Of a stretch of 64,000 bases of DNA, positions 12,101 through 36,524 are shown one piece after another (the first letter of the stretch is position 1; every line of letters begins with the position of its first letter). The notes under the pieces are model-generated. The model did not search any database. It was not told the DNA's origin and worked only from the letters and a program-made list of their open reading frames with translations. The DNA is from Candidatus Danuiimicrobium aquiferis. Its GTDB lineage: Bacteria > Omnitrophota > Omnitrophia > Omnitrophales > Danuiimicrobiaceae. The stretch spans positions 79,857 through 143,856 of the forward strand of contig MHFR01000053.1 in the NCBI GenBank assembly GCA_001804285.1. Direction: 5' to 3'. A program made the position numbers and the translations under genes.

Positions 12101-15100
12101 CAAAGGTCGTGGGCGCACCTTTTTTCCCGATTCCGTAATCGGCAATGACCAGTAAATCATTTTTGGACTTTCCCTGCTGCCGGCGCAGTTCCTCAACGCG
12201 AGCGATCATATCCCGATGAAGGGGCGACAAACGTCCCTGCCATGTCACCCCGGGTGTTTGATCAGAAAGCGAATCTTTTTCACCGACGAGCCGGACAAGT
12301 TCATCAAGACGGGCCCTTAACCGGCTTAATACATCCGCAGATTCAATTCCAAACAGTTGCGAATTTTTCAAAATCTGGTCATAAAGATCGCGGGCAGCCT
12401 CCAATTTTCCTTCTTCGGCCAATTGATTCGCTTGTGTCACATTTTGAATATTCAACGGGTAATCTGCCGGCACAGGTGCTTCAGTCTCACTCGCATTAAT
12501 GTCATCCCCACGAAAGTGGGGATCCAACTGGATTCCCGCCTTCGCGGGAATGACAGAATTCCGGACTTCGGCACGTTTGGCTAACATTTTGTCCGCCAAA
12601 GTACTCTCGCGCGTTCCGATTAATACCTGGTGAGAACCACTTTCAAGGTTACGCGCTTCGGAGCGAACAGCCTCAGTAGCCCTTGTTTCTGCTCCTTCCA
12701 CCAATTTAAACGGAGCAATCGCCGGAATTTTGACTGGAATACTGATCGCAAAGGTGGTGCTTTTTTCTTTTTTTCCTGTTTCCGGATTAATCACCTCACC
12801 CGAATCAATTTCAAGAACACCGTTATATTTCCCGATAACAGCGCGAACATTTTGAAGTCCCTGCCCCCTCCCCAAGGCCCCTTTCGTTGTCAGCGGAATC
12901 CCGCTCCGGATCTGCCGCAAAACATCCGCAGACATTCCTTTTCCGTTATCTTTCGCAACTAATCGAATCGATTGTTTTCCTTCTTCCGAAAGTTCGAATG
13001 TCGCTGAAATTTGAATTTCAAAATCGTCTTGTCCTGCCTTTTTTGCATCCCGTGCATTCTGAATTAAATTCGTCAGCAACACATCCAAATCCATCACGGC
13101 AAGCCCTGAATCCAACCCGATCTCCCAAGTCATTCTGACATACGGTTCTCGCCTTGCCCAATTAAGCAAAATGTTTAATTCCTCTTCTTGCGGCAATCTC
13201 TGACCTGTTTCCAGTCTTTCAAGCGTGTCCGCAAATCTTTTTGTTTCGTCGAGCGCACGCTCTGTCCAATCAATATATAGTTGGTCGTTCTCCTCGCTTT
13301 GAATCTGGTATTTTTTCATGAGCGTTAAAACAGCTTCGCCAAATTGCTCTGCTTCCCGGATTGCCTGCTTCGTCACCTCGATTAACACGATTAAATCGTC
13401 TATATATTCCGGCTGAAAATGGGTTTCTGTATTAACCGAACTGATCGTCTGCAACAGCATTCTTCCGTAATCAATCGCCTGAGCGCCTTTTGGTTTGAGC
13501 TCTTCATATCGGGCTCTGTCTTCCGGCGAAAGCGCCTTCTTCTCAAATCCGAAATAACGCATATTGGTAGCGGCCTTCCAAATATGACTTAAACGATGGG
13601 TAAAATCTCTTTGCGGCCAGCTCATATATTCGATAATTTCTCTCAACCGAACCTCATTTGCTCGAAGCGCTGCATTTTTATATTGATCCCGTTCGGTTTC
13701 GGGAACCAACGTATCAATCAATTGTTTAAACCGGTCTTTGGGTGTGACAATTATTGAAGGACTTTCAGCCACCGTTGTCCGGCTCTCCGATCTTGCTGTC
13801 TGCTGGACTTGACCTTCCCGCAGTTCCGAACGAGAAGTCTGTTTTTTCTGCCACTCATCAAGGTTAATCACCATTGTGTATAATTTTTTTCCATCCACCG
13901 TGTCTATTGAAGAAACTACCCGTGCAGTATGATAACGCCAAAGCTTGCGGCCCTGTTCTGTCACCGAATTAATTTGAACCTCCGTCAACCCCATGGTCAC
14001 GAACCGCTCAAGAAAACGGATTGCCAATTCATTTGCGACGGTTGTGCTTCTGCCCGCTAATTCGATGGGAAACGAACGTGCCGAATGAATTTGTCCTTTA
14101 GCAATGACGTGTTCTGGCTTTTTGGGATCAACCGCATATTCATAACGATGAGCGCCTACAAGTTCGCCCGAAGGTGTTTCAATATAGTCAACAAAAGTAT
14201 TCGGACGCAGACCTTTTAAACGGTCACGTTCGAAACCAAGAAAATCATTGACCCGATCAAAAAGAAATTGATTATCAACCTCTCCAATTTTCCAGCCACC
14301 TTGATCGCTCGTGCGCGCCTCCGTCCTTGGTTGAGCGGTCAGATCAGTCAAGGACGGAGCGCCGGTTGTTTTGATTAAATTCGCTTGGGAATTATTTTTT
14401 TCGAAGCGCTGCTCCGAACGGAATTCAGATCGCGGAAGTTTTTGGATGGCCCGGCAGTAAAAATTTTCTGCCGCGGGCGCCGCGGAAAAATTTCCATCGA
14501 CAATGTCAGAATTATGATCAATAAATTGAATTTCATTCGTATCGTTTTCAAACGCCGGTAAAAGGCTTAACGAGGCATCCTCTAAAATAAAGTGGACCTC
14601 ATTTAATATTTGAGCCGCCAGGACAGCGGCCGGATTGCTTTGTTTTTCTTCCTCCGCAAGGGCCGCTGCTATTTCGAGTCTTTTTAGAACACGGTTTTTG
14701 TTTTTGAGAATGCTTTGTCCGTTTACCGATAATGAAATTTGATCTCCGTCAATCTCGAGCAGGTTTAATTGATTGAACAGCAAATCATAAAGAGCTTGAA
14801 CGGTCTTTTCTTGTTTTAAAACTTGTTGGCCGGATTCGGTGAAAGAAAATGTCCGTCTGAGCAAATCTTCAGCTGTGTCGGGAGAAGACGCAAGCAACAT
14901 ATCTATCATCCTATTTTCTCCAGTTCCTATCGGATTTGCCGCGTCCGGAGCTTCAACAGCAACCATCTTGAGAATCTCCATACGCTCGGGAGTTTCCGGG
15001 GCAACCAATAATGTTTGGATCCCACGCGCAAAGGCGGCAAGGTCCGCTCTCGCCTCCGTGCGAGCGGCAATGGCAGCGGTTTTGGTATCAGCGGAAGCAG

Positions 15101-18100
15101 GTTCATAAATCCTGACGTATGATGATTCCTGTTGACTATCCATAATCGGAGGATCGAACGGGTTAAGATTCCGCAACTTTTCGAACTGATCGATCCTAAG
15201 CCCGCTGCCCATAAATGCTTCGTTGAAGACCATGACCAATTTCGTGTGTCCTGCAAATTCAATCATTTTATCCGTAAATTGGCGGCGGAATTGTTTGATC
15301 ATCCGTTTGGTCCTGGCCAAATTTTCCTCATCGCCAGGCTGAGTATAATAAAACATCACAAAATCTTTATCGCTCCATGGTACCTGAAACGCATCCTGAG
15401 GCGCTTCTGAGTAATGAAAACGCAAGGGGGCAATGATCCCTGCTTCCACAGCCCGGTCATAGAGGAATTGGCCATCACGATGAAATGCGGGATCGATCTC
15501 CACGGCTGTCACTTCCATGCCGAAAACCACGTGAGCCACCAAAGAAACAATTAAGTTCGGCCCCGAACCCATATCTAACAAATGTTTTCCGCTCAAGTTC
15601 CCGTACCGGTCGGATAATTGTTGAAATGCTTCCTGCAACATGTCAACGGAAGTCGACCCGTAACGGGTTTGATTTGCAGTCAACCGTCCATCTTCCACCA
15701 GCAAAGACATCTTTAAAAGACCTTCGACCGTCCGCATTCGATCTGCCAGCAGCGAATTGGGTGCAGTCACCGAATTTGCAACCTCTCCCACCCTGGGTTC
15801 AGCAGTTCCAGAAATCATCGCCTCTGCGCGGGCTTGAATGGCATCCCGAATCTTCGGCTGATTTAAGAAATGCCGCAGGGTCGGGCCGGCGTTGATATCA
15901 TCAAGCTGGGTAAGAAGCGATTGTTGCGGAACGAAAAAGATTTTCCAGATTTCGCCGCGGCCGGTCGTTTTCCCTGTTTCGTCGGTTTGCTGTTTGTCGA
16001 GACTTTGAAAATGGTTAACTTCACCTTCTGAAAGGGACGCATCCAACGTTTCTTTTGTTTTCTGAATCATGGCAACTTCTTCCGGCGTCGCATGGTAAAT
16101 ATAAATCGTCTTTTTTTCCTGATCCTTCGCTCGAGCTGCGGAAAATTCTCCATCATGACCGATACGTTCCCATTTCCCTTTTAATACGTAGCCCGCTGGG
16201 AAACCCAATTCTTCGACTAATTCTTTCTTGATCGCCTGGTCATAGCGGAAATCCTCGGATACGTGACCGCCATAAATATTTGCTGTGCGCTGCGCCGGAT
16301 CCTTATTTGTACGCTCCAACATGATAAAATTCCCGTCCGGCGTCCGGACAAACGCATTCGCCACCCGATGGAGAAGCTGTTTTCCTTCCGAACCGTCATT
16401 TTTTGCCTTCACCTGAACAACGCCGTTTGGCCCGTAATATAAATGTGCAAGGTTCCGGTCAAGAGAACCGAGAACTTCATCCGCTTGGGTGACGACATCA
16501 ATCATTTCGCCGCTCAATTTAACCTGCCCGGCTTGAATTAAATTCAAAACAGCGTCGACATGAGCCGCAGTCAACGGCGTGTCATTTTTCGGATTGGCTA
16601 TAATTGTTTCTAACTGAACCTTGACTTGTTTAGCCGTCACCCTCGCTTCCGCACGCCCAGCAAAAACAGAATCGGGGACAGGTTCTGGTTTCGTTGATGC
16701 AGAACCTGTCCCCATTATTGAGGCGAGGTTGCGCTGCTTCGCACGCTGGCGGGCAATTTTGAGAACTTCTTTAATTTGCTGATACGGAAGCCCTTTGGTT
16801 TCTGCTTCGATTTTTCGGATCACGGCATCATCCCCGACAAGTGTTTGACGTGCGTCGAGAAATTGTTCATACACGGCCAAACGGTCAAGCAATGTTTGAG
16901 CGGGAAGTTTCTCAAGCTCTTTTGCTTTCGCCTGAATTTCCTCAAATGAAAGCTCTGCGGGTTCCGCCGTTTGTTCGATCACACCTTGCATATCCGGCAC
17001 CAGCGCGAGCGCGGTGGCAAGGTTCGAATTGGAAACGCCGTTGACGCGGCTGACTAAGCTGCCGACGGATTCAGCGTCGATTTTGCCGCTTTTCCACATG
17101 TCTTTGAGGCCCTCTCCAAGGACTTCAATCTTTTTCGACATGAGCGCTTTCAGCTTACCGAAATAATTTGAATTGAAGGATTTGAGTTCCCGTTCGAGGG
17201 CTTGACGGAGGTCGTTGTCATTCCCGCGAAAGCGGGAATCCAGAGACTGTAGATCCCCGATTAAAGCATTCGGGGATGACAAAGAACCCTGCCCCGCGTC
17301 TCCTGCCCCTCCCTCCTGTTCCTTCCTCAATATCTGCACAAGCGCGTCCACATATCTTGTGTAAGAACCGGCTTCGGTCACTCGCCCTTCGGCGATGGAA
17401 TTCTGGATAATCCGGTCGCGCCAGCGTTTGAGGCTGGGTGTGAGTTCTTCGGTTTTAAGAGACGCGGCCATTTTCGCGGCATAATCTTTTGCGAGCGCGT
17501 CCCAGAGGCTTCCTTTGAAATATTTCATATAGGACATATTGCCGCGCATGACATTCATGTAATTCTCTTTCGTCCCGATCTCGCTGATTTTGGGCGCGAT
17601 GAGCGCGTAAGAAATACCGGCTGATTTCATTTTTTCTTTGATGCCTTCCGAATGGAAACCGCCGGTAACGATCACCGCGATCTTCGCGTTTTGACGGTCC
17701 ATGGTTTTAATAACGTTTTGGAAAAGCACTTCGTCACGCTCGAGCGCAAGTTCGTAGAAGCGGAAGTGCGGCTGGAAAAGAGTTACGAGGTCACTGGACA
17801 CTACGTCACTCGTCACTGGTGTAAAAAAAGGCGGGTGCTGTAACGCAAAAATAGTTTTGGGGTTTTTGTCATCCCCGTGCAAACGGGGATCCAGCCGGAT
17901 TCCCGCTTTCGCGGGAATGACAGAATAACCTCTTCGCAATGACGCACTATCTTTTTCCGGTGACTGGTGACCGGCGACTAGTGGCTTCACCTCTTTCCAC
18001 TGTTCATGCGTAATTTCCAGTTTCGCGAAATCGCGGAAAAGTTCCAAATCATAGAAACCGGAAACCAGTTCTTTCTCCTCTGCCGTTTTCGGAAGGAATT

Positions 18101-19778
18101 CTCTCAATTCTTTTTCGAGCGCTTCAAGTTCGTCAAACAACTTCGTCCCTTTAATCGAAGAAAGTGTCCGCGCATGTTTCGCCGTCGGTTTTAAAATATC
18201 CGGGATATACGCATCGAATCCGTATTTCCTCGATAGCTCCTCAACGCGGTCAACGAGCGCGCCTTGTTTGATCTGCCCGATTTTATACATTTGAATCATT
18301 TGGCCGGTCGTGATTTGTTCGGCTTTCGGAAGTTTCGGAAGGATTTTCGTCTCAAATCCGCGGATAAAATAATTCATCGCCACGTCAAAACCTTCGTCTT
18401 GAAAACGTTTTTCGTTTTCTTCGGCAGTCAGGATCTTGGAAAGTTCGGGATAGGCAGTAGAAAAACCCCTTACATCTCCTCCCCCTTTGTGGGGGAGTCC
18501 TCCTAACATCCGCCAAAATACGCGTCGGACTCGCCGCGCTGTTTGGCGAGAATTGGCGGATCCGCCATCCTGTTGGGCGGAGACTAAGGTGGGGGGTAAT
18601 GTCCTATTATCACCCCCATCCTTTCCTTCCCCCATCAAGGGAGAAGGAAACCTCAAAGAAAAGGGGACAGGTTCTGGTTCAATGGAGTCAAAACCTGTCC
18701 CCTTTTCTGCCTTCCATAACCGCTCCAGGCCTTTCGCATATGTCATCAAATCGATTTCGTCTGTTTTGAATTTTTTTTGGGAATGAATGAATTCCACAAT
18801 TGGGTTGGCCTGTAAAACCCCCTCACCCCAACCCTCTCCCCGAGGGAGAGGGTTAGGGTGAGGGTGAGGGCCTTTTCCCTTTTGATTTTTTTCTTCTAAT
18901 CTTTTCTCCAATTCCGCTTCCACCCTGTCCAGTTCCCTTAAAATCTCCGGCTCGTTCCTGGACGCTTCCAAGAACGCTTTCTTGTTTTCCTCGTATAGCT
19001 TCTTCTCCTCGATTCCGTAATAGCTCGAGTCAAATTCTTCATTAAGAATAGATGCCATTTCACCGCCGGAAAGTTCACCGCGCCCGACATATTCTTTCAC
19101 TACTTTCTGTTTTAATTCCTGATCGGGAAATGATTTGAAATAAAGGCTGTCCAATCGGCCGGCACCGCCTTCGAGGAGCGTAGGGGCGGGTTTGAAACCC
19201 GCCCCTACAAGCAGTTTCTGGATTTCCCGGATGATTTTCGAAATATTCGTTTCCGAATCATAATTCGTATGCGCATCCTGGAGGTAGAGGATGAGTTTTG
19301 GGGCATCGACAATAGACACTGGGACACTGGTCCCTGGTATGTCCCCGCTTGCTGTCATTCCCGCATGCTTCAGGTGGGAATCTATGCGTCTGGATGAAGA
19401 AAAGGGGACAGGTTCTGGTTCAATGGAGTCAGAACCTGTCCCCTTTTCTTTCTCTGATGACTGGTGACTGATGACTGACGACTTCTTTCCCGGCACAAAC
19501 GATTCCACAAGACTGCCGAGCTCTTCAGGAAGGCTGAGTGAATCAATGATTTCTCGAGGATTCACTTCCTTAATCCCGTGGCGAGGGTAGGCGCCTTCAA
19601 GAAGAGACTCGGCATAAACTGAACGACTCGGAGTAAATGTAAAATTGGTAAGGGTAAAGGTAATGACAAGAATAATGGCAATCAAGCGACGGCAAATCAG
19701 TATACTTTTATCTGATGTATTGGCCACGGGATTTCCTTTAAAACTGTTTACAACAGTTTGTAAAAGTATACATGGCAT
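1..19778 (-). CDS. Giant multidomain secreted/membrane-associated protein. The 5' start is in the window and the 3' end lies beyond position 1. About 6,590 codons are inside the window.
   Basis: Reverse-complement translation in the frame of ATG 19776-19778 shows no stop codon down to position 3. An alternative GTG start at 19725-19727 is preceded by AAGGAAA. The track has no minus-strand Met-ORF fragments in this frame. Recognisable catalytic motifs are spread over the whole length, all in this frame. The gene is absent from the ORF track because it runs off the window edge. Confidence 0.8.
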   Translation of the reverse strand, partial: MPCILLQTVVNSFKGNPVANTSDKSILICRRLIAIILVITFTLTNFTFTPSRSVYAESLLEGAYPRHGIKEVNPREIIDSLSLPEELGSLVESFVPGKKSSVISHQSSEKEKGTGSDSIEPEPVPFSSSRRIDSHLKHAGMTASGDIPGTSVPVSIVDAPKLILYLQDAHTNYDSETNISKIIREIQKLLVGAGFKPAPTLLEGGAGRLDSLYFKSFPDQELKQKVVKEYVGRGELSGGEMASILNEEFDSSYYGIEEKKLYEENKKAFLEASRNEPEILRELDRVEAELEKRLEEKNQKGKGPHPHPNPLPRGEGWGEGVLQANPIVEFIHSQKKFKTDEIDLMTYAKGLERLWKAEKGTGFDSIEPEPVPFSLRFPSPLMGEGKDGGDNRTLPPTLVSAQQDGGSANSRQTARRVRRVFWRMLGGLPHKGGGDVRGFSTAYPELSKILTAEENEKRFQDEGFDVAMNYFIRGFETKILPKLPKAEQITTGQMIQMYKIGQIKQGALVDRVEELSRKYGFDAYIPDILKPTAKHARTLSSIKGTKLFDELEALEKELREFLPKTAEEKELVSGFYDLELFRDFAKLEITHEQWKEVKPLVAGHQSPEKDSASLRRGYSVIPAKAGIRLDPRLHGDDKNPKTIFALQHPPFFTPVTSDVVSSDLVTLFQPHFRFYELALERDEVLFQNVIKTMDRQNAKIAVIVTGGFHSEGIKEKMKSAGISYALIAPKISEIGTKENYMNVMRGNMSYMKYFKGSLWDALAKDYAAKMAASLKTEELTPSLKRWRDRIIQNSIAEGRVTEAGSYTRYVDALVQILRKEQEGGAGDAGQGSLSSPNALIGDLQSLDSRFRGNDNDLRQALERELKSFNSNYFGKLKALMSKKIEVLGEGLKDMWKSGKIDAESVGSLVSRVNGVSNSNLATALALVPDMQGVIEQTAEPAELSFEEIQAKAKELEKLPAQTLLDRLAVYEQFLDARQTLVGDDAVIRKIEAETKGLPYQQIKEVLKIARQRAKQRNLASIMGTGSASTKPEPVPDSVFAGRAEARVTAKQVKVQLETIIANPKNDTPLTAAHVDAVLNLIQAGQVKLSGEMIDVVTQADEVLGSLDRNLAHLYYGPNGVVQVKAKNDGSEGKQLLHRVANAFVRTPDGNFIMLERTNKDPAQRTANIYGGHVSEDFRYDQAIKKELVEELGFPAGYVLKGKWERIGHDGEFSAARAKDQEKKTIYIYHATPEEVAMIQKTKETLDASLSEGEVNHFQSLDKQQTDETGKTTGRGEIWKIFFVPQQSLLTQLDDINAGPTLRHFLNQPKIRDAIQARAEAMISGTAEPRVGEVANSVTAPNSLLADRMRTVEGLLKMSLLVEDGRLTANQTRYGSTSVDMLQEAFQQLSDRYGNLSGKHLLDMGSGPNLIVSLVAHVVFGMEVTAVEIDPAFHRDGQFLYDRAVEAGIIAPLRFHYSEAPQDAFQVPWSDKDFVMFYYTQPGDEENLARTKRMIKQFRRQFTDKMIEFAGHTKLVMVFNEAFMGSGLRIDQFEKLRNLNPFDPPIMDSQQESSYVRIYEPASADTKTAAIAARTEARADLAAFARGIQTLLVAPETPERMEILKMVAVEAPDAANPIGTGENRMIDMLLASSPDTAEDLLRRTFSFTESGQQVLKQEKTVQALYDLLFNQLNLLEIDGDQISLSVNGQSILKNKNRVLKRLEIAAALAEEEKQSNPAAVLAAQILNEVHFILEDASLSLLPAFENDTNEIQFIDHNSDIVDGNFSAAPAAENFYCRAIQKLPRSEFRSEQRFEKNNSQANLIKTTGAPSLTDLTAQPRTEARTSDQGGWKIGEVDNQFLFDRVNDFLGFERDRLKGLRPNTFVDYIETPSGELVGAHRYEYAVDPKKPEHVIAKGQIHSARSFPIELAGRSTTVANELAIRFLERFVTMGLTEVQINSVTEQGRKLWRYHTARVVSSIDTVDGKKLYTMVINLDEWQKKQTSRSELREGQVQQTARSESRTTVAESPSIIVTPKDRFKQLIDTLVPETERDQYKNAALRANEVRLREIIEYMSWPQRDFTHRLSHIWKAATNMRYFGFEKKALSPEDRARYEELKPKGAQAIDYGRMLLQTISSVNTETHFQPEYIDDLIVLIEVTKQAIREAEQFGEAVLTLMKKYQIQSEENDQLYIDWTERALDETKRFADTLERLETGQRLPQEEELNILLNWARREPYVRMTWEIGLDSGLAVMDLDVLLTNLIQNARDAKKAGQDDFEIQISATFELSEEGKQSIRLVAKDNGKGMSADVLRQIRSGIPLTTKGALGRGQGLQNVRAVIGKYNGVLEIDSGEVINPETGKKEKSTTFAISIPVKIPAIAPFKLVEGAETRATEAVRSEARNLESGSHQVLIGTRESTLADKMLAKRAEVRNSVIPAKAGIQLDPHFRGDDINASETEAPVPADYPLNIQNVTQANQLAEEGKLEAARDLYDQILKNSQLFGIESADVLSRLRARLDELVRLVGEKDSLSDQTPGVTWQGRLSPLHRDMIARVEELRRQQGKSKNDLLVIADYGIGKKGAPTTFDLARSLRDSGYGNVVMIGFDNNRQYIDSARKQLSKETLPGIQMEFALADAFHVNEGLKNAGRADLVGKVDMVIVANVLIDGIYTKYYTAEDAKKAIPRLGQILSENGFVVRATGPMERDVSKKVEYQLYDSNGTEIANGISYPDRELDAKVAELVKEIQTLQQDRLDEFQKKLDYFLKAYFSGGQQIDRRAQILNALKEKFGQALSGISPAIMAALSSAESGSQGALKTMSDSRLAERMTVAQVAADQMIDRIKKANEADLISIEAELRELVKEGGALRGEEANDQKAEILRALVEKFGDQLSEIAPAIEDILTSCSSCAVDYAKRAQELKDRAAAGENVATEAREVAENLKSEIGAALAAGLSLPQMGIETSGVLDQLIAGYLALDGIEGLDVKLKTELQTQLTALRTQMAREKAAQLERIFANIEKIADRQATKTRGENWDWPGAEAKYKELIEYYQSTGRGEDAARVERKLKGLRAHVQLEILLNTYNTMPVDELAKELESLVQIATNMEDEYRNQLMRAIDFLSGRNKTVYHVSGIDKSKIVEGGEIVIYPGVANAFGEGVYASQVPLLSYDGGEGLQLPTGDIIVFSFEINPDAEKHIGADPNAIYVNVHTNEHAIRLKNLKLREVSADELKKIGAIGMENARKNGKKVYLVEAEEVKFDSGYQTSGDYERFMAENEIIKELNELEADKDEATYDEMVRKIAERGLSDSNRIKAVLEKVFSAEIAAREMLERIRQAEESDLPELEAELGLLVGARGELRGEKHNDLKAQILNEMIERFGSRLTDVAPAIAEILTSCSSCAVNYANRASDLAKRAGQGEDVHGEVLDIAQSLKTEIEAALKAGLTLSQMGIQNLNMFGQLERGYQALMTLLDGDKDFILRAALDDQLSQLIDMPEHDRYMAPRLKGRSPQEREIGRPMKDIEQDLEKRNWYWHGLTDEAKDEVRGRIEIIRERLPAFLRKKIGHKILAINVKGSYIWGPGTIAGFDHYNAQDMDILIIVEDNIEESVDIHLTDEEKREIFGDSDWQTGKLEIKVMGAGKAKPSAQFNNEMNRMISAKHSGVLLFGEDYFENISTQNFALKKLFDLLGAALIEYGKFLSARLSEKDGALLAQYRQLKIEYADLYEESKTQIEQVISALEARMKAQRLAHLRIMKRLFEIGLAAEFLVRTLTPERLAQFRKATDFGPHRFAPHLAGVTLSQFLTKGVPESVFEHAQELEELIVEDPGQIMDSFLAMYLNALKDYVGDQTADQATQGIIGKIEHSDELSRSEVRAELSALVSEGGPLHGAERNDYKAKILEALLRKFGSQLNEIAPEIVAILTSCSACAVDYAKRAQALKDRAAAGENVQKEAVDVGRNLRDEIDAALTAGLNLEQMGIENADMFGQLIAGYEALPSLIPADEDPNLKAALQEQSDRLREMFREVLPAAPATQTAGRRSEVRKTGEEIAVPSTEKFAEGTRQPAEKRQIPKKQPRMVVHGDVHGELDGLKEDLRQAGLIDENGNWIGGDAVFVQVGDVIDRGPKSKEAIEFLRRLKRQAQQAGGDVVRLIGNHELMLLEGMLGDDDALFMWWRNLPTEQRAVFEEFRDDPQRFRAAIREVYGEIVDQMLEDIMNDHLKAAEQLHGEVFTHAGARSKIRKQLIKEIAQKLGIDPSQVTEKQIADHINEILKQAISGKNFSHAIFGEDGIFWNRGVMDSVDAGKMRQIFGHTPEADSPVVASPNASRVNVDVGLYERYGGGRGFLEIDSDGNLVAHRKNQAGEWEKESLGNKDGGVEEKSSTAEATKTAEVVLPLASQNRTQSNPETARKMERMLEGLLAAALALQGKTVSEGDLRDIEKLLNELQQQTIEANDPQVAFAWAVINFIRVAQSRGDLTDVREQLHSASNRVAGRYAKKIEEILSAFSSGESISAEYNDLAAKVADDLMSNIQDISLSDFDGYLYVMKHQDLTIWGTLAKIFQVIIKALEKYPEPSKAFGTTMAEQRKILEAIRRELVKKLADQAKSKAGPLPGSTKTDVVAPVKTSSVAAMPAQKEMRDEPENPLHPRGSLTEPTPELDENKGREVNELDLDSLKPGDQVLIRSSTHDLEYVLERTADGRFKVWMRGRPGGYYLVHPENIQVLGKLSIGKMFFMPYYNWYPSDGALMPARIGQDWGSEAVKILVFPNSEMVPADAGGRSEVPGAGTSRVLQGAQFDGDDRTTKRRDELIAQGVKKTQAANQAIEEARQSGIELLRGLQKGDRIEDGESGNRYEFDGRDLILLDDDGRKIDSAVKSVYGIKRSAEGRAVKDGQGHFVFEFAPDGSAVSLGMRARVLTEVQETGPQAAQTPLDERSEARIMAMPGAGPLGADMVRAELQAAAGILFDMIDDLDFIDGVSGNELRAGGYRYQLARHPQTGELVIIIASDQAGALGVLSAQTQAELDRIHGFLNILIAAQALVARTPALKNDPAALAQAIKSLSPVTHTASDLAPPASSKSASASSTLQTKPATQIPSQQITVREAINVRTRMKKINQDGLRASKQLSRMTPRERVRLIAHTMLNREPSETEIDVFQGCEIGVQKLSEFPEIGADFLKANGIRDHYAGYIHLTAEAVLYLRENGVFQTSSTQGFMNDPGTYGPLRIQTLDGTQENYFRAVGSYAFLTQNINHPGGRIERPMKKTEFHESIHHRAGGKTDQPSIERPDVDEMNGLEELQAYFGMNLRANGTVDTNFGNASLDTALGYVRPDQKDGARQAIQAVRRLAQILPGRDVYHIIGRTRSFGELGVLADRTRSEIREMFRPGFSDSEIDHAIQFGFDRPGELAVENIRTEIENGVYLRHDTDDPVRLQRFANHYIGLVLGYLLSQAGPAESRLLQELFDINQKANPRLYEAVRSGLKQWFGFSDTETVDDQILWDRVAEEFRKSAAQTRTELFDEARLTGGVSRPVAVAGTRNEMRSIPVESSTAPDEALRPLPGPRSSEAHLPPVAASTPSGGALGSRSGAWSDEVEKQVKAGQPALQNAGWKALFSGWLQLIAGAVDFAEYFSDENPNHQYTIPFVHQNSGTIREIQGTERRALEQIQSKIKEEIGKNTSQYRDQIVRRYNHTEFQNFLNRLLSHPGLVKVSSGEKFKLVWRMLAMSPADLRDQNFENLLGRFAKLDDQNFTARNIKTTIQAFVEEIHNVKIMEDGIIRSPVDPNVSLPVRAKPLKAVAATGNEMMPEQLIDENDILAALEEIREIEEEEDSVIPASTQQTGESAVLMGGKAGISAKGGSAFGGQLLDPRVHGDDTKFRAEARSVAPTPQGDDLYLDDKELSAFSPASSRAEARLEFGMPGQESIKAGDLSSIRSKVRVSRAEARSPVQDMPPAEVRKMMVGLIMHQFKTLIDGAETSILALIRSHSIGNHDNDNKLLTNLKTNIQLARDFISEFDPILKERRIWIARYGEFNKIFSIFNTLGISEKEKLRALSPEETAYLEKLINFTALHQKLSEQLLKFETLVGDLGVFLEGRNVLTEDHDLFKRAKDLVKSVGWIVEEIKTPVAARAEVRAEFSGSALKTYRYELINMTGEELRREAIRTLRFGSLAEKDRENLTKLLRSLRAREDILYARRADGIYRGARGVDWSLPQKNWVIDILVRARRNEILLQVRSEVRGMGSWFGLGETKDIEGIPSRNDLKTILANESVYLVENVKPGDPAFLILISPTLTLPLDLISGVEKARWKDYLEKLLSQTPLTFADQQFWKNAAGVILPGVTVSKDYFEAIAKEAGITAAKLREVLGIPEDTGKMIALSTQLRKAQHPHRMLMEEVFHVLENDAFSQEIKAMPDRDKGTAGLIIETVNDFLQLMFTSPFAYDQIYSEYTDWSDTEKLALQKRYLVDKDFDPNRNIRGILNELLNDIRQGESVESVLVTDLLLRGVTESGSKAILIQYLNVLLGREKFSQYQKDKDLFPDFSTQKIRETIQTYARSETREEEWLRQETEKRIYEEKTPDEIVKFYEKLKRNKKFMQALKRNDLEGVEDALASKKLGLGAFVFSIFSMFGLLVVGIYTSVLTVMFAMVDI
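2309..2443. repeat. Composite MITE-like palindromic element inside the giant ORF (GTCATCCCCGTG..CGGGGATC + GGCGGATCCGCC...TTGTTGGGTGGA + CGCGGGAATGAC)
   Basis: Terminal inverted repeats GTCATCCCCG / CGGGAATGAC. It translates in-frame as ...DSVIPASTQQTGESAVLMGGKAGISAKGGSAFGGQLLDPRVHGDD. Confidence 0.75.
6850..7690 (-). other. PPP-family (calcineurin-like) Ser/Thr metallophosphatase domain (giant protein)
   Basis: MVVHGDVHGELDGL...VFVQVGDVIDRGPKS...VRLIGNHELMLL gives the GDxHG, GDxxDRG and GNHE signature triad. Later IFGHTP resembles the conserved His region. Confidence 0.75.
7925..8310 (-). repeat. Intragenic protein-module repeat, copy C (ELSALVSEGGPLHGAERNDYKAKILEALLRKFGSQLNEIAPEIVAILTSCSACAVDYAKRAQALKDRAAAGENV...MGIENADMFGQLIAGYEAL)
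   Basis: About 85 percent nucleotide identity to copies at 9497..9870 and 10950..11320. For example, 8058..8170 and 11088..11200 are nearly identical. Confidence 0.8.
8950..9300 (-). other. Pol-beta-like nucleotidyltransferase domain (giant protein)
   Basis: ILAINVKGSYIWGPGTIAGFDHYNAQDMDILIIVED matches the GS...[DE]xD minimal NTase motif, with a helical region after it. Confidence 0.5.
9497..9870 (-). repeat. Intragenic protein-module repeat, copy B (...KAQILNEMIERFGSRLTDVAPAIAEILTSCSSCAVNYANRA...)
   Basis: Same module with the conserved LTSCSSCAV and MGI..L..GY motifs. Confidence 0.8.
10950..11320 (-). repeat. Intragenic protein-module repeat, copy A (...KAEILRALVEKFGDQLSEIAPAIEDILTSCSSCAVDYAKRAQELKDRAAAGENV...)
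   Basis: Same module as copies B and C. Confidence 0.8.
11330..11560 (-). repeat. Partial, Cys-less copy of the same module (RRAQILNALKEKFGQALSGISPAIMAALSSAES...)
   Basis: Matches the first half of the module. TSCSSC is replaced by LSSAES. Confidence 0.5.
11750..12170 (-). other. Second Rossmann/MTase-like domain (giant protein)
   Basis: DLLVIADYGIGKKGAPTTFDLARSLRDSGYGNVVMIGFDNN...ADLVGKVDMVIVANVL resembles a glycine-rich loop, an acidic beta2 end and a hydrophobic beta4. Confidence 0.35.
12501..12556. repeat. MITE-like element (GTCATCCCCACGAAAGTGGGGATC-CAACTGG-ATTCCCGCCTTCGCGGGAATGAC) in-frame in the giant ORF
   Basis: Two hairpins flanked by GTCAT/ATGAC. It translates as SVIPAKAGIQLDPHFRGDD. 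Confidence 0.8.
12740..13100 (-). other. GHKL / HATPase_c (histidine-kinase-like ATPase) domain (giant protein)
   Basis: N-box LDVLLTNLIQNARDA, G1 box VAKDNGKGM, G2-like GALGRGQGLQNV, and a C-terminal TTFAISIPV strand. Confidence 0.65.
13450..13620 (-). other. Possible DHp/H-box-like segment upstream of the HATPase domain
   Basis: Segment REIIEYMSWPQRDFTHRLSHIWKAATNMRYF contains a His in a helical context about 150 aa before the N-box. It diverges from the canonical H-E-L-R-x-P-L. Confidence 0.25.
15200..15660 (-). other. Class I SAM-dependent methyltransferase-like domain (giant protein)
   Basis: Motif I-like HLLDMGSGPNLIVSLVAHVVFGMEVTAVEIDP is followed by an acidic residue at the end of beta2 and a hydrophobic beta4 region (DFVMFYY). 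Confidence 0.5.
16070..16400 (-). other. NUDIX hydrolase-like domain (giant protein)
   Basis: Translation is QLLHRVANAFVRTPDGNFIMLERT...GGHVSEDFRYDQAIKKELVEELGFPAGY. KELVEELGF fits the Nudix box REuxEExGu with R->K, and the spacing to the upstream G is near consensus. Confidence 0.5.
16660..16720. repeat. Degenerate copy of the GGGGACAGGTTCTG...CAGAACCTGTCCCC element in-frame in the giant ORF
   Basis: Sequence is cGGGGACAGGTTCTGGTTTCGTTGATGCAGAACCTGTCCCCa, translating as IMGTGSASTKPEPVPDS. Confidence 0.6.
17217..17280. repeat. MITE-like element (GTCATTCCCGCGAAAGCGGGAATCCAGAG...ATCCCCGATTAAAGCATTCGGGGATGAC) in-frame in the giant ORF
   Basis: Same family as 12501..12556. Confidence 0.8.
17868..17923. 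repeat. MITE-like element (GTCATCCCCGTGCAAACGGGGATCCAGCCGGATTCCCGCTTTCGCGGGAATGAC) in-frame in the giant ORF
   Basis: Same family. It translates as SVIPAKAGIRLDPRLHGDD. Confidence 0.8.
18470..18875. repeat. Cluster of at least five different palindromic elements, all in-frame inside the giant ORF: CCCCC-TTTGTGGGGG; GGCGGATCCGCC...TTGGGCGGAG; CCTTCCCCCATCAAGGGAGAAGG; GGGGACAGGTTCTGG...AAACCTGTCCCC at 18656..18708; CCTCACCCCAACCCTCTCCCCGAGGGAGAGGGTTAGGGTGAGGG at 18828..18870
   Basis: Each has a paralog elsewhere in the window (26735..26830, 21178..21350, 25056..25102, 25592..25686). The encoded peptide is low-complexity: ...GKGPHPHPNPLPRGEGWGEG...AEKGTGFDSIEPEPVPFSLRFPSPLMGEGKDGGDN... Confidence 0.8.
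19354..19447. repeat. GTCATTCCCGCATGCTTCAGGTGGGAATC element plus a GGGGACAGGTTCTGGTTCAATGGAGTCAGAACCTGTCCCC element, in-frame near the 5' end of the giant ORF
   Basis: It translates as ...SEKEKGTGSDSIEPEPVPFSSSRRIDSHLKHAGMTA. Confidence 0.75.
19600..19727 (-). other. N-terminal signal peptide or signal anchor of the giant protein
   Basis: From the GTG start the protein begins MANTSDKSILICRRLIAIILVITFTLTNFTFTPSRSVYA/ES. This is a basic n-region, a ~20-residue hydrophobic core and a VYA-E cleavage-like site. Confidence 0.5.
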
Positions 19779-19949
19779 ATAATTTTATATCAAACATCAC
19801 CCGTCTAAATTTCCGCAAGTTGTTTAATTTGAATAGTTTATGGATATTATTTTTGCTCGTTTTTTAGAGGAAAATTGGGGGCTGGCTTTGAGTCACAGAT
19901 TTTATTAAATCTATCAATAAATGGCGCGAAAAAAGCTCTTAAAACTTTC
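19779..19949 (-). promoter_or_regulatory. AT-rich intergenic region upstream of the giant ORF, and a putative promoter or leader
   Basis: It is the only non-coding stretch between queG and the giant gene. AAGGAAA and GGTGA Shine-Dalgarno-like sequences precede the candidate starts. Confidence 0.3.
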
Positions 19950-21155
19950 TTATTTCCTAAAGTTTTCTATCACGATAGAGGCGTTTCTTAAAAGCTGCCT
20001 GCGAGTTGCACGCGAAATAGCGGAGTCGGAAAACTTCTCTTTATATTCTCGATTGGTTTTGATGGCAAGTAACTCATTCAAATCAAGGCGGGAACCGGCA
20101 CCGGAAGTCGCTTTAAATTCTTTCCAGCGGGTTTCTTTCTGCTTCGACGTGTAAGGACAAACTTCCAAACACCGGTCGCACCCGAATATCCGGTCACCGA
20201 TCTTGGGCTTCAATTCTTCGGGAATCTCATTTTTATGCTCAATCGTAAGGTAAGCAATGCATTTACGCGCATCCATCGATTTATTTTCTCCGATAGCGCC
20301 TGTCGGGCATTGATCAATACATTTTCTGCACCGGCCGCAATTTCCTTCGATTGGCCGATCGGGTTCCAGCTGAAGATTCGTCACAATTTCCGCTAAAAAC
20401 AACCACGGCCCGAATTCCGGGGAAATAAGCTGAGACTGCCGTCCGATAAATCCAAGCCCGGCTTCGACGGCCAAGGAACGTTCGAGAAGCGGCTTTGTGT
20501 CTACGCATGTTTCCAAATGAATATTCTTGGTTTGCAGCGAACAGGCATGCCTGTTCGCTGCTACGACATTTTTAATTTTCCCAATCAATTTATTTAATTT
20601 TTCCGAAATGATTTTATGATAATCTTTTCCCCATGCGTAACGGGCGACACGGCCGGATGGCACCATGTTCGTAGGGGCAGACCCATGTGTCTGCCCTGTA
20701 CTGCTGTCATCAAAAAAAGGGGACAGGTTCTGGTATAGCGGCATCAGAACCTGTCCCCTTTTTTTGTCAGAACTCGGGCGAACACCTGCCTCGCCGGCAG
20801 GCGGGCGCGGGGTCGCCCCTACAGTCGCCCCCCCCGTCCAATAATTCACCCCGAGAACAATCACATTTTTTGCATCCGGAAACTCTTTGAAAAATTTTTT
20901 CTGCCGCTCCGGATATTCTTCAAGATAATGCATTCCACCGTGCTTCCCTTGGCGAATCCATTCTTTAAGATAAGATTCTTCCGCAACAAGCATCCCCTCA
21001 CCCCCCGCCTGCCCGCCTGCCGGCGAGGCAGGGAATTTCCCCTCTCCCTTAGGGAGAGGGTTAGGGTGAGGGGAAATATTAATATTTGTGATTCCGCAAG
21101 CGTCGAATCCGGTATCAAGTGCGAGAGATTTGATTTGACGGGAGGTGATACTCAT
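19950..21155 (-). CDS. queG: Epoxyqueuosine reductase QueG, carrying two in-frame MITE insertions
   Basis: GMHYLEEY and RYAWGKDYH signatures. CGRCRKCIDQCP and CDRCLEVCP [4Fe-4S] motifs. Insertions encode NISPHPNPLPKGEGKFPASPAGGQAGGEG and GGATVGATPRPPAGEAGVRPSSDKKRGQVLMPLYQNLSPFF. Confidence 0.85.
   Translation of the reverse strand: MSITSRQIKSLALDTGFDACGITNINISPHPNPLPKGEGKFPASPAGGQAGGEGMLVAEESYLKEWIRQGKHGGMHYLEEYPERQKKFFKEFPDAKNVIVLGVNYWTGGATVGATPRPPAGEAGVRPSSDKKRGQVLMPLYQNLSPFFDDSSTGQTHGSAPTNMVPSGRVARYAWGKDYHKIISEKLNKLIGKIKNVVAANRHACSLQTKNIHLETCVDTKPLLERSLAVEAGLGFIGRQSQLISPEFGPWLFLAEIVTNLQLEPDRPIEGNCGRCRKCIDQCPTGAIGENKSMDARKCIAYLTIEHKNEIPEELKPKIGDRIFGCDRCLEVCPYTSKQKETRWKEFKATSGAGSRLDLNELLAIKTNREYKEKFSDSAISRATRRQLLRNASIVIENFRK
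20712..20870. repeat. GGGGACAGGTTCTGGTATAGCGGCATCAGAACCTGTCCCC element plus a CCTGCCTCGCCGGCAGGCGGG palindrome, in-frame inside queG
   Basis: Palindromic repeat-family members. They encode about 50 extra residues between the QueG GVNYW and RYAWGKDYH motifs. Confidence 0.75.
20994..21072. repeat. CCTGCCCGCCTGCCGGCGAGGCAGGG palindrome plus CCTCTCCCTTAGGGAGAGGGTTAGGGTGAGGGG element, in-frame inside queG
   Basis: Same families as 18828..18870 and 25592..25686. Confidence 0.75.
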
Positions 21156-21177
21156 GAGTATAAATCCCAGTGACCAA

Positions 21178-21350
21178 ATCCTCCGCCAAAAAAAGTGGTC
21201 GGATCCGCCAACGCTTTAGTGGCGGACAATGACCAAGGAATTTTCAAATCACAAATCTCAAATATTGGGAGTTTGTGAATTAGGATTTCTTTGGACCTTG
21301 TCCGCCACAATGCACGGCGGATCCGCCATTTTGTTGGGTGGAGGATTTGG
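21178..21350. repeat. Intergenic repeat block (GGCGGATCCGCC...TTTAGTGGCGGACAATGACC ... GGCGGATCCGCCATTTTGTTGGGTGGAGG)
   Basis: The GGCGGATCCGCC(A)TTTTGTTGGGTGGA motif also occurs at 2345..2440, 18540..18600 and 34180..34240. Confidence 0.65.
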
Positions 21351-23866: not shown

Positions 23867-23907
23867 GTTGGGACTCTTGGATCATTACATTATTTGTTTC
23901 GCGTTTT

Positions 23908-23975
23908 GTCATTCCCGCGAAAGCGGGAATCCAGAGAAAATGCTGGATGCCCGCTTGAAGCGTGCGGGCATGACA
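23908..23975. repeat. MITE-like element GTCATTCCCGCGAAAGCGGGAATCCAGAG...GGATGCCCGCTTGAAGCGTGCGGGCATGACAC immediately upstream of polX
   Basis: Same family as 17217..17280. Confidence 0.75.
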
Positions 23976-24972: not shown

Positions 24973-25055
24973 TACTCAGCTTTTTAAATACACAAGAGCA
25001 CAGGGACGCAAGAATTTCTTTACCCTGTGCGCTGGTGCCCATACGTGCTGAAAGG

Positions 25056-25102
25056 AAAAGGGGACAGGTTCTGGTTAATGGAGTCAGAACCTGTCCCCTT
25101 TT
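25056..25102. repeat. GGGGACAGGTTCTGGTTAATGGAGTCAGAACCTGTCCCC element, flanked upstream by GTGC(A/T)C(A/T)AG-type arms
   Basis: Near-identical to 19399..19447. Confidence 0.8.
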
Positions 25103-25108
25103 CTATTG

Positions 25109-25492
25109 TCACGCTGATGTTTGAATAAGTCGTGCGTTTTTATACTTGGAAATTAAAAAAGACAAATCTGCTTCCCCTGCCGCATTCGCCCTCGCAGCGG
25201 CATCATTTGGTCCTCGCCGCAACTGCGAGGACAGGTCGCCCGCATTGATTAATGCCTGCTTTGGCATTCTCAAATCGTTGCGGGCTTCCGCAAGGCTTGC
25301 CTGATGTTCTGAAGAATCCGCATTTAAAAGAAAATTTACCTGACCGGAGGGAATTTTAAGAAGGGTTCCCATATTAGGAATGGTTGCAAGCGTTGTCAAT
25401 GAATTGCTATCTTTTGAAGTCAGCATAGCAGAAAAAATCGTCAAACCGGCTATGATCACAAGAACCCTAAAAAAACGATTGCCCGTGCCCAT
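25109..25492 (-). CDS. Hypothetical membrane-anchored protein
   Basis: ORF with an N-terminal hydrophobic helix. No recognisable motif. Confidence 0.4.
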   Translation of the reverse strand: MGTGNRFFRVLVIIAGLTIFSAMLTSKDSNSLTTLATIPNMGTLLKIPSGQVNFLLNADSSEHQASLAEARNDLRMPKQALINAGDLSSQLRRGPNDAAARANAAGEADLSFLISKYKNARLIQTSA

Positions 25493-25591: not shown

Positions 25592-25686
25592 AACCCCTCA
25601 CCCCTGCCCTCTCCGCTTCGCTACAAGGACTGCCTGTAAGAGTTTGGACTGCCCTCTCCCCGAAGGGAGAGGGTTAGGGTGAGGGA
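25592..25686. repeat. CCCCTCACCCCTGCCCTCTCC ... CCCTCTCCCCGAAGGGAGAGGGTTAGGGTGAGGG palindromic element
   Basis: Family shared with 18828..18870, 20994..21072 and 30614..30636. Confidence 0.75.
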
Positions 25687-25698
25687 AATTTAAGAAAC

Positions 25699-26576: not shown

Positions 26577-26734
26577 TAGTCGATCCTTCCTTCTCTAATT
26601 TTAATAAAATAAAACACTCTGATTTGTCTTGTCAGCTATAATCATCGGTCAATAAATCTATTATATGAATCCCTTTTTTCGATTGCAACCTTTCTGATAG
26701 AAGGAGAAAAACATCCGATGAGTGTTAGGCATTT

Positions 26735-26893
26735 TCCCTCCCCTTCGATGGGGGAGGTGAAGGTGGGGGTGATATTTAAGAATTCTCCCCCCATCCTCAC
26801 CTTCCCCCCTTGTGGGGGAAGGAAATTCGCGCATTCAACTTACGCTTCTCCGCCTTAGGCGGACAAGCGTAAGTTGAGCGCTCATTTGACTTT
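26735..26893. repeat. Two palindromic elements in the greA/queF divergent intergenic region: CCCCTTCGATGGGGGAGG...CCCCCCTTGTGGGGGAAGG, and TTCGCGCATTCAACTTACG...CGTAAGTTGAGCGCTCATTTGACTTT
   Basis: The second element recurs at 34236..34285. The first family recurs at 18470..18500 and 32215..32250. Confidence 0.7.
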
Positions 26894-30504: not shown

Positions 30505-30542
30505 TACCCCTTATGCCGTCATTGCGTACAACTTCACATTTT

Positions 30543-32065
<1,523 letters not shown>

Positions 32066-32254
32066 TTAATTTCGGGACGGTTCAATCGTAACCTCATTGA
32101 TCGCAATGGGTTATGGAAAATCATCCCCGCATTTGAAGATGTTCCTTGTTTTGAAAGTGTACTAAATCGTGCGGAATCTGTCTATCTTTTCCTAATGTAT
32201 GTAGGAATTGAGGATCAAATTTTCTTCCCCCCTCTGTGGGGGAAGAATAGTATC

Positions 32255-32392
32255 TGTTTAGCGTTCTGAAGTGGCGAACACGCCAAGTTCGTGTCATGCC
32301 CGCATGCTTAAAGCGGGCATCCACAGTTTCTGGAAAAAGGGGACAGGTTCTGATCCTATTAAGTCAGAACCTGTCCCCTTTTTATATCGGGT
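32255..32392. repeat. 75-nt repeat TTTAGCGTTCTGAAGTGGCGAACACGCCAAGTTCGTGTCATGCCCGCATGCTTAAAGCGGGCATCCACAGTTTCTGGA, plus a GGGGACAGGTTCTGATCCTATTAAGTCAGAACCTGTCCCC element
   Basis: The 75-nt unit is almost identical to 53596..53675. Confidence 0.8.
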
Positions 32393-32397
32393 TAGGG

Positions 32398-34092: not shown

Positions 34093-34285
34093 TCCCGCAT
34101 GCTTTCCCTCGGTAAATCGAGGGCCGGCCCTGTATTTCCAGGGAGGCGGGAATCTCTATTTATAAATCCCCGCCAAGAACATGCAGGGATCTCCGCCACA
34201 AATCATTGGCGGATCCGTCCGCGCTGTATGGCGGAAAATTCGCGCATTCAACTTACGTTCCATAAGTTGAGCGCTCATTTGACTT
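34088..34285. repeat. Block of GTCATTCCCGCATGC...GCGGGAATC, GGCGGATCCG, and TTCGCGCATTCAACTTACG...ATAAGTTGAGCGCTCATTTGACTTT elements
   Basis: Matches 26824..26893 and the other family members. Confidence 0.7.
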
Positions 34286-34672
34286 TTTCATCATCCTTTA
34301 ATCACACCGATTGGCCGCATCCGGACGACACGTTTTGCAATACCGGCCTCATTTACAACTTCGACCACATCGCTGACATCTTTATAGGCCAGCATTTTGA
34401 TTCAGATCAAATTGACTTGAATTAAATCTTACCATAGCCGAATCGTTGACTCATAATAGACCTTGCCGAAACCCGGAGGGAGTTTTACATGCGTCCAACT
34501 TCAAAAAATACAGTAATGCCTTAATTAAGTATTGTGTCCCAAGTATCATACATTACACAACTAATGACTGATAAGATTTCTCTTTCAATGCTATCGGTAG
34601 AATAATAGAATGTGAATTGTAAATTAAAAGATTGCTTTAATATCCCATAAAGAAAATTAGCCTTAGGAATCA

Positions 34673-36463: not shown

Positions 36464-36524
36464 CAATGGCATTCCGAAGAAAATTATAACTTTGAATAGA
36501 CTCTCTCCATGAAAAGGAATTCTT

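Follow-up and report, generated by a model that had tools for sequence, protein, structure and literature searches.

Palindromic repeats of several families have very probably inserted, in frame, into tolerant loops encoded by two neighboring genes of the Omnitrophota bacterium Candidatus Danuiimicrobium aquiferis: a giant gene and queG, which encodes epoxyqueuosine reductase. Both genes lie in a 64,000-nucleotide (nt) stretch of contig MHFR01000053.1 (assembly GCA_001804285.1, positions 79,857 to 143,856), hereafter the window. An earlier note, made from the DNA letters alone, had described a giant open reading frame (ORF) that passes through repeats of this kind without meeting a stop. Re-translation bears this out. 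The frame stays open on the minus strand for 6,594 codons, across all copies, and no fewer than 12 palindromic units, which represent six or more families, lie in its path; the earlier note had given at least eight copies from five families. Repeat finding, together with BLAST searches of the window with the listed intervals as queries, showed that each one contains a palindrome with other copies in the window. Three hairpins had been missed: one with GTAG ends at 19180-19208 and two more at 3204-3226 and 3282-3304. Perfect hairpins with stems of at least 8 bp number 18 in the ORF versus approximately 3.6 expected by chance (analytic estimate).

The repeats differ in anatomy and in copy number. 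In family A (AAAAGGGGACAGGTTCTG-N12-CAGAACCTGTCCCCTTTT), a stem of 14 bp is flanked by A and T tails, and the unit is built like a bidirectional intrinsic terminator; three of its copies fall within the giant ORF (16667, 18656, and 19397) and five outside it (20712, 25052, 28420, 32332, and 33963). Family B (TGTC-ATTCCCGC-loop-GCGGGAAT-CCA) has a loop of 4 nt (B1) or 9 nt (B2) and stands mostly in head-to-head doublets, with 17 intact tagged hairpins in the window versus 0 to 2 in 20 shuffles. Family C, a long GC palindrome, occurs at 18816-18872 and again at 20994-21075, 25594-25692, and 30615, and family D is a palindrome (GGCGGATCCGCC..TTGGGCGGAG) with its longest copy at 21170-21347. F, E1, and E2 are hairpins of a composite element. 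The GTAG hairpin is probably a repeat too, present as a single copy in the sequence examined. An Rfam scan of the whole window at gathering thresholds returned no match. The features of the giant ORF are given below with the predicted translations of the repeats; loops L1 to L5 belong to a conserved leader domain near the N terminus of the protein.

3 to 19784, minus strand: giant ORF, stop-free for 6,594 codons from 19784 to 3; the left window end cuts the gene
19397 to 19449: family A hairpin in loop L1, read as KGTGSDSIEPEPVPF
19353 to 19384: single family B2 unit in loop L1 (TGTC tag, 8-bp stem, 9-nt loop), read as IDSHLKHAGMT
19180 to 19208: perfect 13-bp hairpin with GTAG...CTAC ends in loop L1b, read as VGAGFKPAPT
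18816 to 18872: family C palindrome in loop L2 (CCCTCACCC..CCCTCTCCC-CGA-GGGAGAGGG..GGGTGAGGG), read as GPHPHPNPLPRGEGWGEG
18709 to 18815, minus strand: host coding sequence between two insertion sites, 107 nt, non-repeat, aligning with all homologs (..NPIVEFIHSQKKFKTDEIDLMTYAKGLERLWKAE)
18656 to 18708: family A hairpin in loop L3, 98% identical to the 19397 copy, read as KGTGFDSIEPEPVPF
18476 to 18655: composite element in loop L3 (F hairpin, family D palindrome, E1, E2, in that order)
17867 to 17926: family B1 head-to-head doublet in loop L4, read as SVIPAKAGIRLDPRLHGDD
17215 to 17281: family B1+B2 head-to-head doublet in loop L5, read as ..ALIGDLQSLDSRFRGND
16667 to 16719: diverged family A copy with a perfect stem and altered loop and flanks, read as MGTGSASTKPEPVPD, just upstream of a RAEAR module junction
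12500 to 12559: family B1 doublet, read as SVIPAKAGIQLDPHFRGDD, immediately after a RAEVR module junction
2305 to 2440: family B doublet with family D (2385-2426) nested in its second hairpin loop and an inner palindrome (2344-2371), read as SVIPASTQQ...LLDPRVHGDD and adjoining RAEAR

One of the peptides quoted in the earlier note, SVIPAKAGIQLDPRLHGDD, blends two of these real copies, those read as SVIPAKAGIRLDPRLHGDD and SVIPAKAGIQLDPHFRGDD. The note had also placed the same elements in intergenic DNA, and nine intervals are clearly intergenic: 21170-21347, 23906-23975, 25052-25104, 25594-25692, 26734-26828, 30540-30573, 32250-32384, 44263-44354, and 47081-47153. Copies outside the giant ORF include the following.

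21170 to 21347: long family D palindrome of approximately 178 nt, intergenic between queG and nth
23906 to 23975: family B doublet, intergenic
25052 to 25104: family A, intergenic, in a terminator position
26734 to 26828: three-hairpin unit F+E1+E2 without D, intergenic
28420 to 28472, 32332 to 32384, and 33963 to 34015: other family A copies
30540 to 30573, 32292 to 32323, 34087 to 34118, 44263 to 44354, 47081 to 47153, and 53632 to 53700: other family B copies, intergenic or at 5' ends

Comparison with homologous giant genes shows the element peptides as insertions. In an alignment with nine homologs (25-45% identity), each peptide forms a window-specific block between conserved segments. 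Loop lengths were measured on the first 1,300 residues of the best 150 hits together with the earlier homologs, aligned to the domain hidden Markov model, with 100 to 152 homologs measurable per loop.

Loop L1: 77 aa in the window, homolog median 20 aa
Loop L1b: 18 aa in the window, homolog median 13 aa
Loop L2: 42 aa in the window, homolog median 17 aa
Loop L3: 98 aa in the window, homolog median 22 aa
Loop L4: 90 aa in the window, homolog median 39 aa
Loop L5: 54 aa in the window, homolog median 31 aa

Of all the loops measured, that of the window is the longest at five sites, and at the sixth it is well above the median. The extra residues of the leader domain come to approximately 237 in total, and approximately 24% of the first 1,000 residues are element-derived (predicted peptides include GTGSDSIEPEPVPF and FPSPLMGEGK), while all invariant residues of the domain are retained. 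Most homologs lack the elements, and in other lineages these loops hold different peptides of repeat type (VIPAEAGIH..HFRGND, VILSEAKDL, EIAS..PRND, and FPSPLVGEG). For example, FPSPLVGEGQDGG in loop L1 of a different metagenome-assembled genome (MAG; L008, GCA_016177155.1) is an in-frame three-hairpin F/E element whose DNA, when checked, was 79% identical to the intergenic unit at 26734-26828. Similarly, family A occurs in frame in loop L4 of a homolog on a Joint Genome Institute (JGI) contig, L001, and near the C-terminal end of a giant ORF on metagenome contig L005. Hence, these loops have been struck repeatedly and independently. The repeats are also common to intergenic DNA, unrelated genes, and other genomes, and the claim that they are dispersed elements and not gene-specific linkers stands.

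Artefact would be another way to account for such a gene, with repeats misassembled into it or with a decaying pseudogene whose frame is open by chance. The sequence is metagenome-derived, and JGI contig L004 (Ga0209343_10086791), which is 100% identical to window positions 31941-33369 (1,429 nt) and abruptly unrelated from 33369/33370, shows that chimeric assemblies exist for this organism. Nonetheless, a 19.8-kb stop-free frame cannot be fortuitous, and the invariant leader-domain residues argue against decay. A European Nucleotide Archive (ENA) assembly has the same sequence over 21.2 kb, and homologs in other assemblies contain comparable in-frame inserts. An artefact is therefore extremely improbable. 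Between the window and this ENA contig, L007, there are six mismatches and no gaps in 21,206 nt (99.97% identity). As for L004, its break point falls inside a DUF1570 lipoprotein gene and reflects either a chimeric contig or a strain-level rearrangement; we rejected it as a presence/absence variant because, being identical to the window and then unrelated, it is most likely chimeric.

Within the leader domain, the interval 18470-18875 had been described as a single locus at which five families co-inserted. Several elements do lie there, but they occupy two insertion sites, 18476-18708 and 18816-18872, separated by the 107 nt of host coding sequence, and part of the cluster is one composite. 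This composite (18476-18655) is read as SLRFPSPLMGEGKDGG..LPHKGGGD. The same F-D-E1-E2 order, at 84% identity, is found intergenically on L005, between ORFs that resemble, from their translations, a PIN-like and a nitroreductase-like gene. The intergenic unit at 26734-26828 consists of F, E1, and E2 without D, so that family D is nested inside the ORF copy, as an insertion that has since been carried along with its F/E host element. Nesting is found a second time at 2385-2426, with family D enclosed by the loop of a family B hairpin.

The earlier suggestion of a tolerant loop agrees with both the loop-length statistics and a structure model. An AlphaFold2 model of the first 1,000 residues, built from an alignment of 21 sequences, was of moderate quality (mean predicted local distance difference test score [pLDDT] of 67, predicted template modeling score of 0.57). 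Its confident cores span residues ~160-300, 330-360, 440-600, and 660-820, and seven of the eight element intervals mapped, representing five of the six insertion sites (all except that of the GTAG hairpin), coincide at least partly with its low-confidence segments (102-159, 311-325, 364-437, 607-653, and 828-860), which run between confidently modeled secondary-structure elements. Mean block pLDDT was 43 over element residues versus 74 for the rest. The model thus fits a picture in which the elements sit in tolerated, probably disordered loops.

The neighboring gene queG tells a similar story. Its product was identified by similarity to Protein Data Bank (PDB) entry 5D08 (E = 3e-45) and by the Pfam families QueG_DUF1730 and Fer4_16, and its inserts were placed using a 16-sequence homolog alignment, as they prevented placement of the N terminus in the PDB sequence alignment.

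19950 to 21155, minus strand: queG (epoxyqueuosine reductase)
20994 to 21075: in-frame inserts, family C and neighbors
20675 to 20815: in-frame inserts, a GC-rich repeat, family A in its second open frame, and a small hairpin
20534 to 20561: in-frame insert, a 12-bp hairpin

The first insert adds 27 window-specific residues (SPHPNPLPKGEGKFPASPAGGQAGGEG) derived from family C and its neighbors. The second gives a loop of approximately 60 aa, compared with 8-13 aa in the shortest QueGs, and includes family A read in its other open frame (KKRGQVLMPLYQNLSPFF); the third adds a small hairpin-encoded segment. Together, the extra residues number approximately 90. Other Omnitrophota QueGs carry the peptides CHSERSEES, VIPAKAA, RHCEP.., and SFPHVLGGNP in the same second loop, which is hypervariable and laden with repetitive extragenic palindromes (REPs) across Omnitrophota. 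Element insertion thus extends beyond the giant gene. Each of the six positions at which L007 departs from the window lies in a 42-bp part of queG (20771-20812), within the GC-rich repeat of the second insert; gene conversion between repeat copies, relaxed constraint, or cross-mapping of reads during assembly are possible causes of this clustering.

No special design seems to be needed for the frames to remain open. Of the 180 reading frames offered by 30 element copies, 108 (approximately 60%) lack a stop, which means that about half of random insertions would bring no stop and a third would keep the frame. Given this ease of in-frame survival, purifying selection on an essential or useful gene suffices. 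The core lengths of ORF-internal elements are mostly not multiples of three (56, 56, and 66 nt for family B doublets and 40 nt for the family A hairpin), and the frame is preserved by net insertion length and not by element design. The multiple-of-three length test proposed in the earlier note was abandoned as uninformative because only the net insertion must comply and insertion borders cannot be set at 40% identity to homologs.

Alternatively, the element peptides could be selected parts of the protein, such as flexible linkers or surface decoration or variation, instead of tolerated passengers. Family A is read in its hydrophilic frame (GTGS..EPVP) in six of seven coding contexts, two other genomes included, and the inserts gather in the leader domain, in a giant protein that is probably exposed at the surface. 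However, the frame bias is the outcome that selection against the more hydrophobic alternative would produce. The inserts are lineage-specific, with low pLDDT over most of them, and the confinement of all six single-nucleotide differences from L007 to one insert suggests relaxed constraint. We therefore regard selected peptides as rather unlikely.

Family B links the window to a described superfamily. CGTC-tagged REPs start with a terminal CGTC (often TGTC) and have 8-9-bp stems starting with A-T pairs, 4-5-nt loops (other lengths in some families), a CCA tail, and head-to-head dimers (Di Nocera et al. 2013, PMC3733652). The window contains 20 family B units in 64 kb, with seven head-to-head doublets. 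The TGTC start is present in 17 of 17 intact units, and in the 8-bp stem columns 5/29 are A-U and 6/28 are U-A in all 14 distinct rows. Compensatory changes occur at three of the eight pairs, at a covariation score reached in none of 500 shuffles. Eight B1 units have 4-nt loops (GAAA, GAAG, GCAA, or GTAC) and nine B2 units 9-nt loops; 11 of the 17 units end in a CCA or CCG tail, and the others in CTA or CTC. In sequence and structure, then, B1 agrees with each of the traits just listed, and B2 departs in loop length. The same superfamily includes RPE-4 and RPE-6 of Rickettsia conorii, and in-frame intragenic REPs, including clusters encoding 43-82 aa, are known from Opitutus terrae, Thauera, and R. 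conorii (PMC3733652). The likeness to Rickettsia palindromic elements (RPEs) drawn in the earlier note is thereby upheld; judged by sequence and structure, family B would even belong to the same published superfamily.

The distribution of the families differs. An exact 28-nt B1 unit (TGTCATTCCCGCGAAAGCGGGAATCCAG) was found in at least 119 genome stretches from other species in a species-representative set, compared with a chance expectation that we estimate at approximately 2e-5 for an exact 28-mer in the genome collection. By record name, the matches listed include Bacteroidetes, Planctomycetota, candidate-phyla-radiation bacteria, Nitrospirota, Chloroflexi-type bacteria, Actinomycetes, Alphaproteobacteria, and Omnitrophota, among others, and also a Rickettsia endosymbiont genome. 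The 28-mer is further found on 12 predicted viral contigs. For family A, the strict pattern had no exact match in 185,579 GTDB species genomes; it was found at six JGI metagenome loci (one being the window itself), and one viral contig has the relaxed pattern. The range of family A thus appears narrow.

The hairpins might instead be retained for a function of the nucleic acid, acting within an approximately 28-kb message as attenuators or terminators, as mRNA-stabilizing or processing sites, or as pause sites that aid folding. Family A has terminator-like anatomy and sits in terminator positions between genes, the stem covariation of family B is present, and copies within the ORF have kept their stems, decay in family B being limited to units outside confirmed coding sequence. 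Recent insertion from a family that is under stem constraint at other places would account for intact stems just as well. Moreover, the sites vary among lineages and are missing from most homologs, T-tracts are shorter in the ORF-internal family A copies, and Rfam yielded no match. This explanation is accordingly quite improbable.

Tolerated in-frame insertion has its closest parallel in RPEs, which, in the accounts given by PMC10969869 and PMC3733652 of work by Ogata et al. (2000, 2002), likewise comprise several palindromic families found both between genes and in frame within unrelated genes, adding peptide segments at permissive sites, with RPE-4 and RPE-6 CGTC-tagged like family B. The link between family B and RPEs is drawn from this published assignment and from the 28-mer in the Rickettsia endosymbiont. 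The present case differs in its host, a free-living or episymbiotic member of the Omnitrophota, in its chief target, a giant gene of many modules, and in the stacking of several families in one loop. RPE-1 is a single unit of approximately 150 bp, whereas the elements here are mostly hairpins or doublets of 30-70 bp plus one composite of approximately 180 bp. Compared with the CGTC/GTAG-tagged REPs of PMC3733652, family B shares the TGTC tag, the 8-bp stem beginning AT, the 4-nt loop (in B1), the CCA tail, and head-to-head dimers, but it includes the 9-nt loop of B2, occurs in a phylum outside those surveyed, and is part of an unusually high density per domain.

Other classes of small repeats are less close. 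The term "MITE-like" (miniature inverted-repeat transposable element) used in the earlier note fits insofar as these are palindromic dispersed repeats; the strict sense, with terminal inverted repeats (TIRs), a target-site duplication, and a parent insertion sequence (IS), is not established. REPINs are reportedly inverted doublets of REP hairpins that form the replicating unit and are mobilized by RAYT tyrosine transposases, a description credited to Bertels and Rainey in 2011. Family B resembles them in its inverted doublets behaving as a replicating unit; nonetheless, the window has only one GTAG..CTAC hairpin (19180-19208) and no RAYT. Bacterial MITEs such as ERIC, Nezha, and the Anabaena MITEs (PMC10969869) are also small, non-autonomous, and capable of in-frame fusion with host ORFs. 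In contrast, the elements here are mostly simple hairpins and not TIR-bounded, with no target-site duplication or parent IS found, although long inverted arms are present in family D (21170-21347) and in the F..E2 composite. Family A recalls the SPRITE of Streptococcus pneumoniae as named in PMC10969869, a dispersed terminator-like repeat just downstream of genes, but it differs in being predicted to be translated within genes as well and in its apparently narrow range.

We propose that several non-autonomous palindromic families, namely, a CGTC-type REP (B), a terminator-like 14-bp hairpin (A), a GC palindrome (C), and a composite F/E1/E2 element with nested D, would have spread in the Omnitrophota genome, settling mostly between genes. 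Movement may have been driven by an enzyme acting in trans, or by recombination or gene conversion, and the elements are presumably near-neutral to selection. Intragenic copies would persist only where the net length keeps the frame, the frame read is stop-free, and the site is a tolerant loop or linker; surviving copies would be translated as Gly/Pro/Ser-rich and probably disordered peptides. Several points weigh against this account. Translation across the elements is deduced from the open frame and the conserved flanks and was not observed. The only close relative, L007, has every element and no empty site, and it may belong to the same population. A Pfam scan of the giant ORF and 30 other long window ORFs found no transposase (RAYT, IS200/605, or other); passages of PMC3733652 likewise report a dedicated transposase for CGTC-tagged REPs as lacking. 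No flanking direct duplication was seen in the element sequences viewed, for which a systematic target-site-duplication test was not run. The GTAG hairpin at 19180-19208 falls in a confidently modeled region (block pLDDT of approximately 87). The pairing of all 112 stem cells in family B is partly circular, the units having been selected for pairing; when units were picked on the 5' half only, 17 of 20 were intact, one was split by nested family D, and two were decayed. Finally, at 16667, 12500, and 2305-2440 there is no collinear homolog, and insertion would there be indistinguishable from capture of a spacer.

These last three sites draw attention to the architecture of the protein. For the giant ORF, an ATG is present at 19778 and gene calling sets the start at 19727; the same gene was called at 9,320 aa on L007, with a start equivalent to window position 19727. 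A hydrophobic, signal- or anchor-like N terminus is followed by the leader domain of approximately 930 aa and then by NUDIX, HATPase (GHKL-ATPase), methyltransferase, and metallophosphatase modules, which fits the multi-enzyme giant proteins known for Omnitrophota. The best named homologs are from Candidatus Omnitrophica MAGs. A text search of two papers on giant genes found neither "palindrom" nor "MITE". The leader domain itself (window 16985-19784, ~800-930 aa, with the motifs DAHxNxDSE ... GGFH ... WRD) stands at the head of 7,839 proteins in a profile search of 1.84 billion representative proteins (1,614 at E ≤ 1e-30), the majority of them thousands of residues long. It has no match in Pfam, and Foldseek of its model against the PDB gave no significant match. 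Hence, it is an uncharacterized leader of giant proteins; a resemblance to TraB/Tiki/ChaN-like proteins was an impression only, which neither Foldseek against the PDB nor Pfam supported. Beyond residue ~930, giant proteins are not collinear and their module order varies.

Between the modules stands a recurrent motif, R-[STA]-E-[VALT]-R, present 15 times in the giant protein against an expectation of 0.135 (residue shuffles; maximum of 2 in 1,000). Examples lie at window positions 16655, 12575, 8291, 7787, 2300, 2207, and 2114. It always falls between recognizable modules, homologs have the same motif, and BLAST homology blocks to other giant proteins begin or stop there. The motif is a candidate inter-module processing or cleavage site; a 2023 preprint on giant genes gives the cleavage points of giant proteins as unknown. 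A 72-nt repeat (83% identity) is common to the giant ORF (2139-2210, RAEARLEFGMPGQESIKAGDLSS) and a small ORF (25226-25297, AEARNDLRMPKQALINAGDLSS, within 25109-25492 on the minus strand), so that the junction motif occurs in a small separate protein too.

The REPs at 16667, 12500, and 2305-2440 directly adjoin such motifs and could instead be fusion scars, former intergenic spacers captured when genes or cassettes fused. That homology blocks are bounded by junction motifs and that module order is not conserved would both suit this explanation, as would the usual place of REPs just downstream of genes (PMC3733652), which family A also takes at 25052, 28420, and 32332. On the other hand, capture leaves unexplained the eight or more leader-domain copies and the QueG copies, whose flanks are homologous and contiguous in relatives, and no homolog with a stop codon or spacer was found at these junctions. 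We consider fusion scars unlikely, with insertion into tolerant loops and linkers the preferred explanation. It is also conceivable, if doubtful, that REP-type repeats are a route by which Omnitrophota giant genes grow and are reshuffled, the repeats at R-x-E-x-R junctions serving as portable recombination sites or being captured spacers. Junction repeats would then fuse and exchange enzyme modules, and domain-internal repeats would supply new disordered linkers. The elements beside three junction motifs, the unconserved module order, and the homology blocks ending at motifs make the data compatible with such a role.

Elsewhere in the window, an 85-nt composite of a GTGGCGAACACGCCA hairpin and a family B2 unit occurs at 32250-32334 and 53590-53674 (95% identical) and recurs upstream of the giant-gene homolog on L001 (5430-5560), where the B2 loop holds a further nested insert. 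Elements also overlap annotated 5' ends, at 53632-53700, 28420-28472, and 33963-34118 (ORFs 53077-53808, 27326-28492, and 32398-34092, respectively), and the true starts of these three ORFs may lie downstream. In ORF 53077-53808, the ATGACA of the REP tag could provide a start codon just ahead of a hydrophobic segment. Positions 34250-44260 hold no element of any family and have a GC content of 0.36-0.39, versus 0.44-0.50 elsewhere; this stretch, which encodes an ABC exporter, asparagine synthase, and glycosyltransferases, may be an island that the genome gained more recently. At 46495-55983 lies a gene cluster resembling those for a type IV pilus or type II secretion (a pilin with an N-methylation motif, T2SSF, a T2SSE ATPase, a secretin, and a PilM-like protein), with a gene for a 23S rRNA-intervening-sequence protein (50559-50930) embedded in it.

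The repeats described here are a new host and a dense, multi-family case of a known phenomenon and not a new kind of system. Protein-coding palindromes are extended from Rickettsia and a few other bacteria to Omnitrophota, at a density that reaches about a quarter of the residues in a conserved 1,000-aa leader domain, and they are found in a housekeeping enzyme as well. The presence of identical REP units in cosmopolitan distribution raises the question of what moves them. In practice, domain or structure analysis of Omnitrophota giant proteins should begin with the masking of their low-complexity stretches, treated as repeat-derived. Moreover, the independent hits on the same loops in many lineages amount to a natural map of the permissive sites in these proteins.

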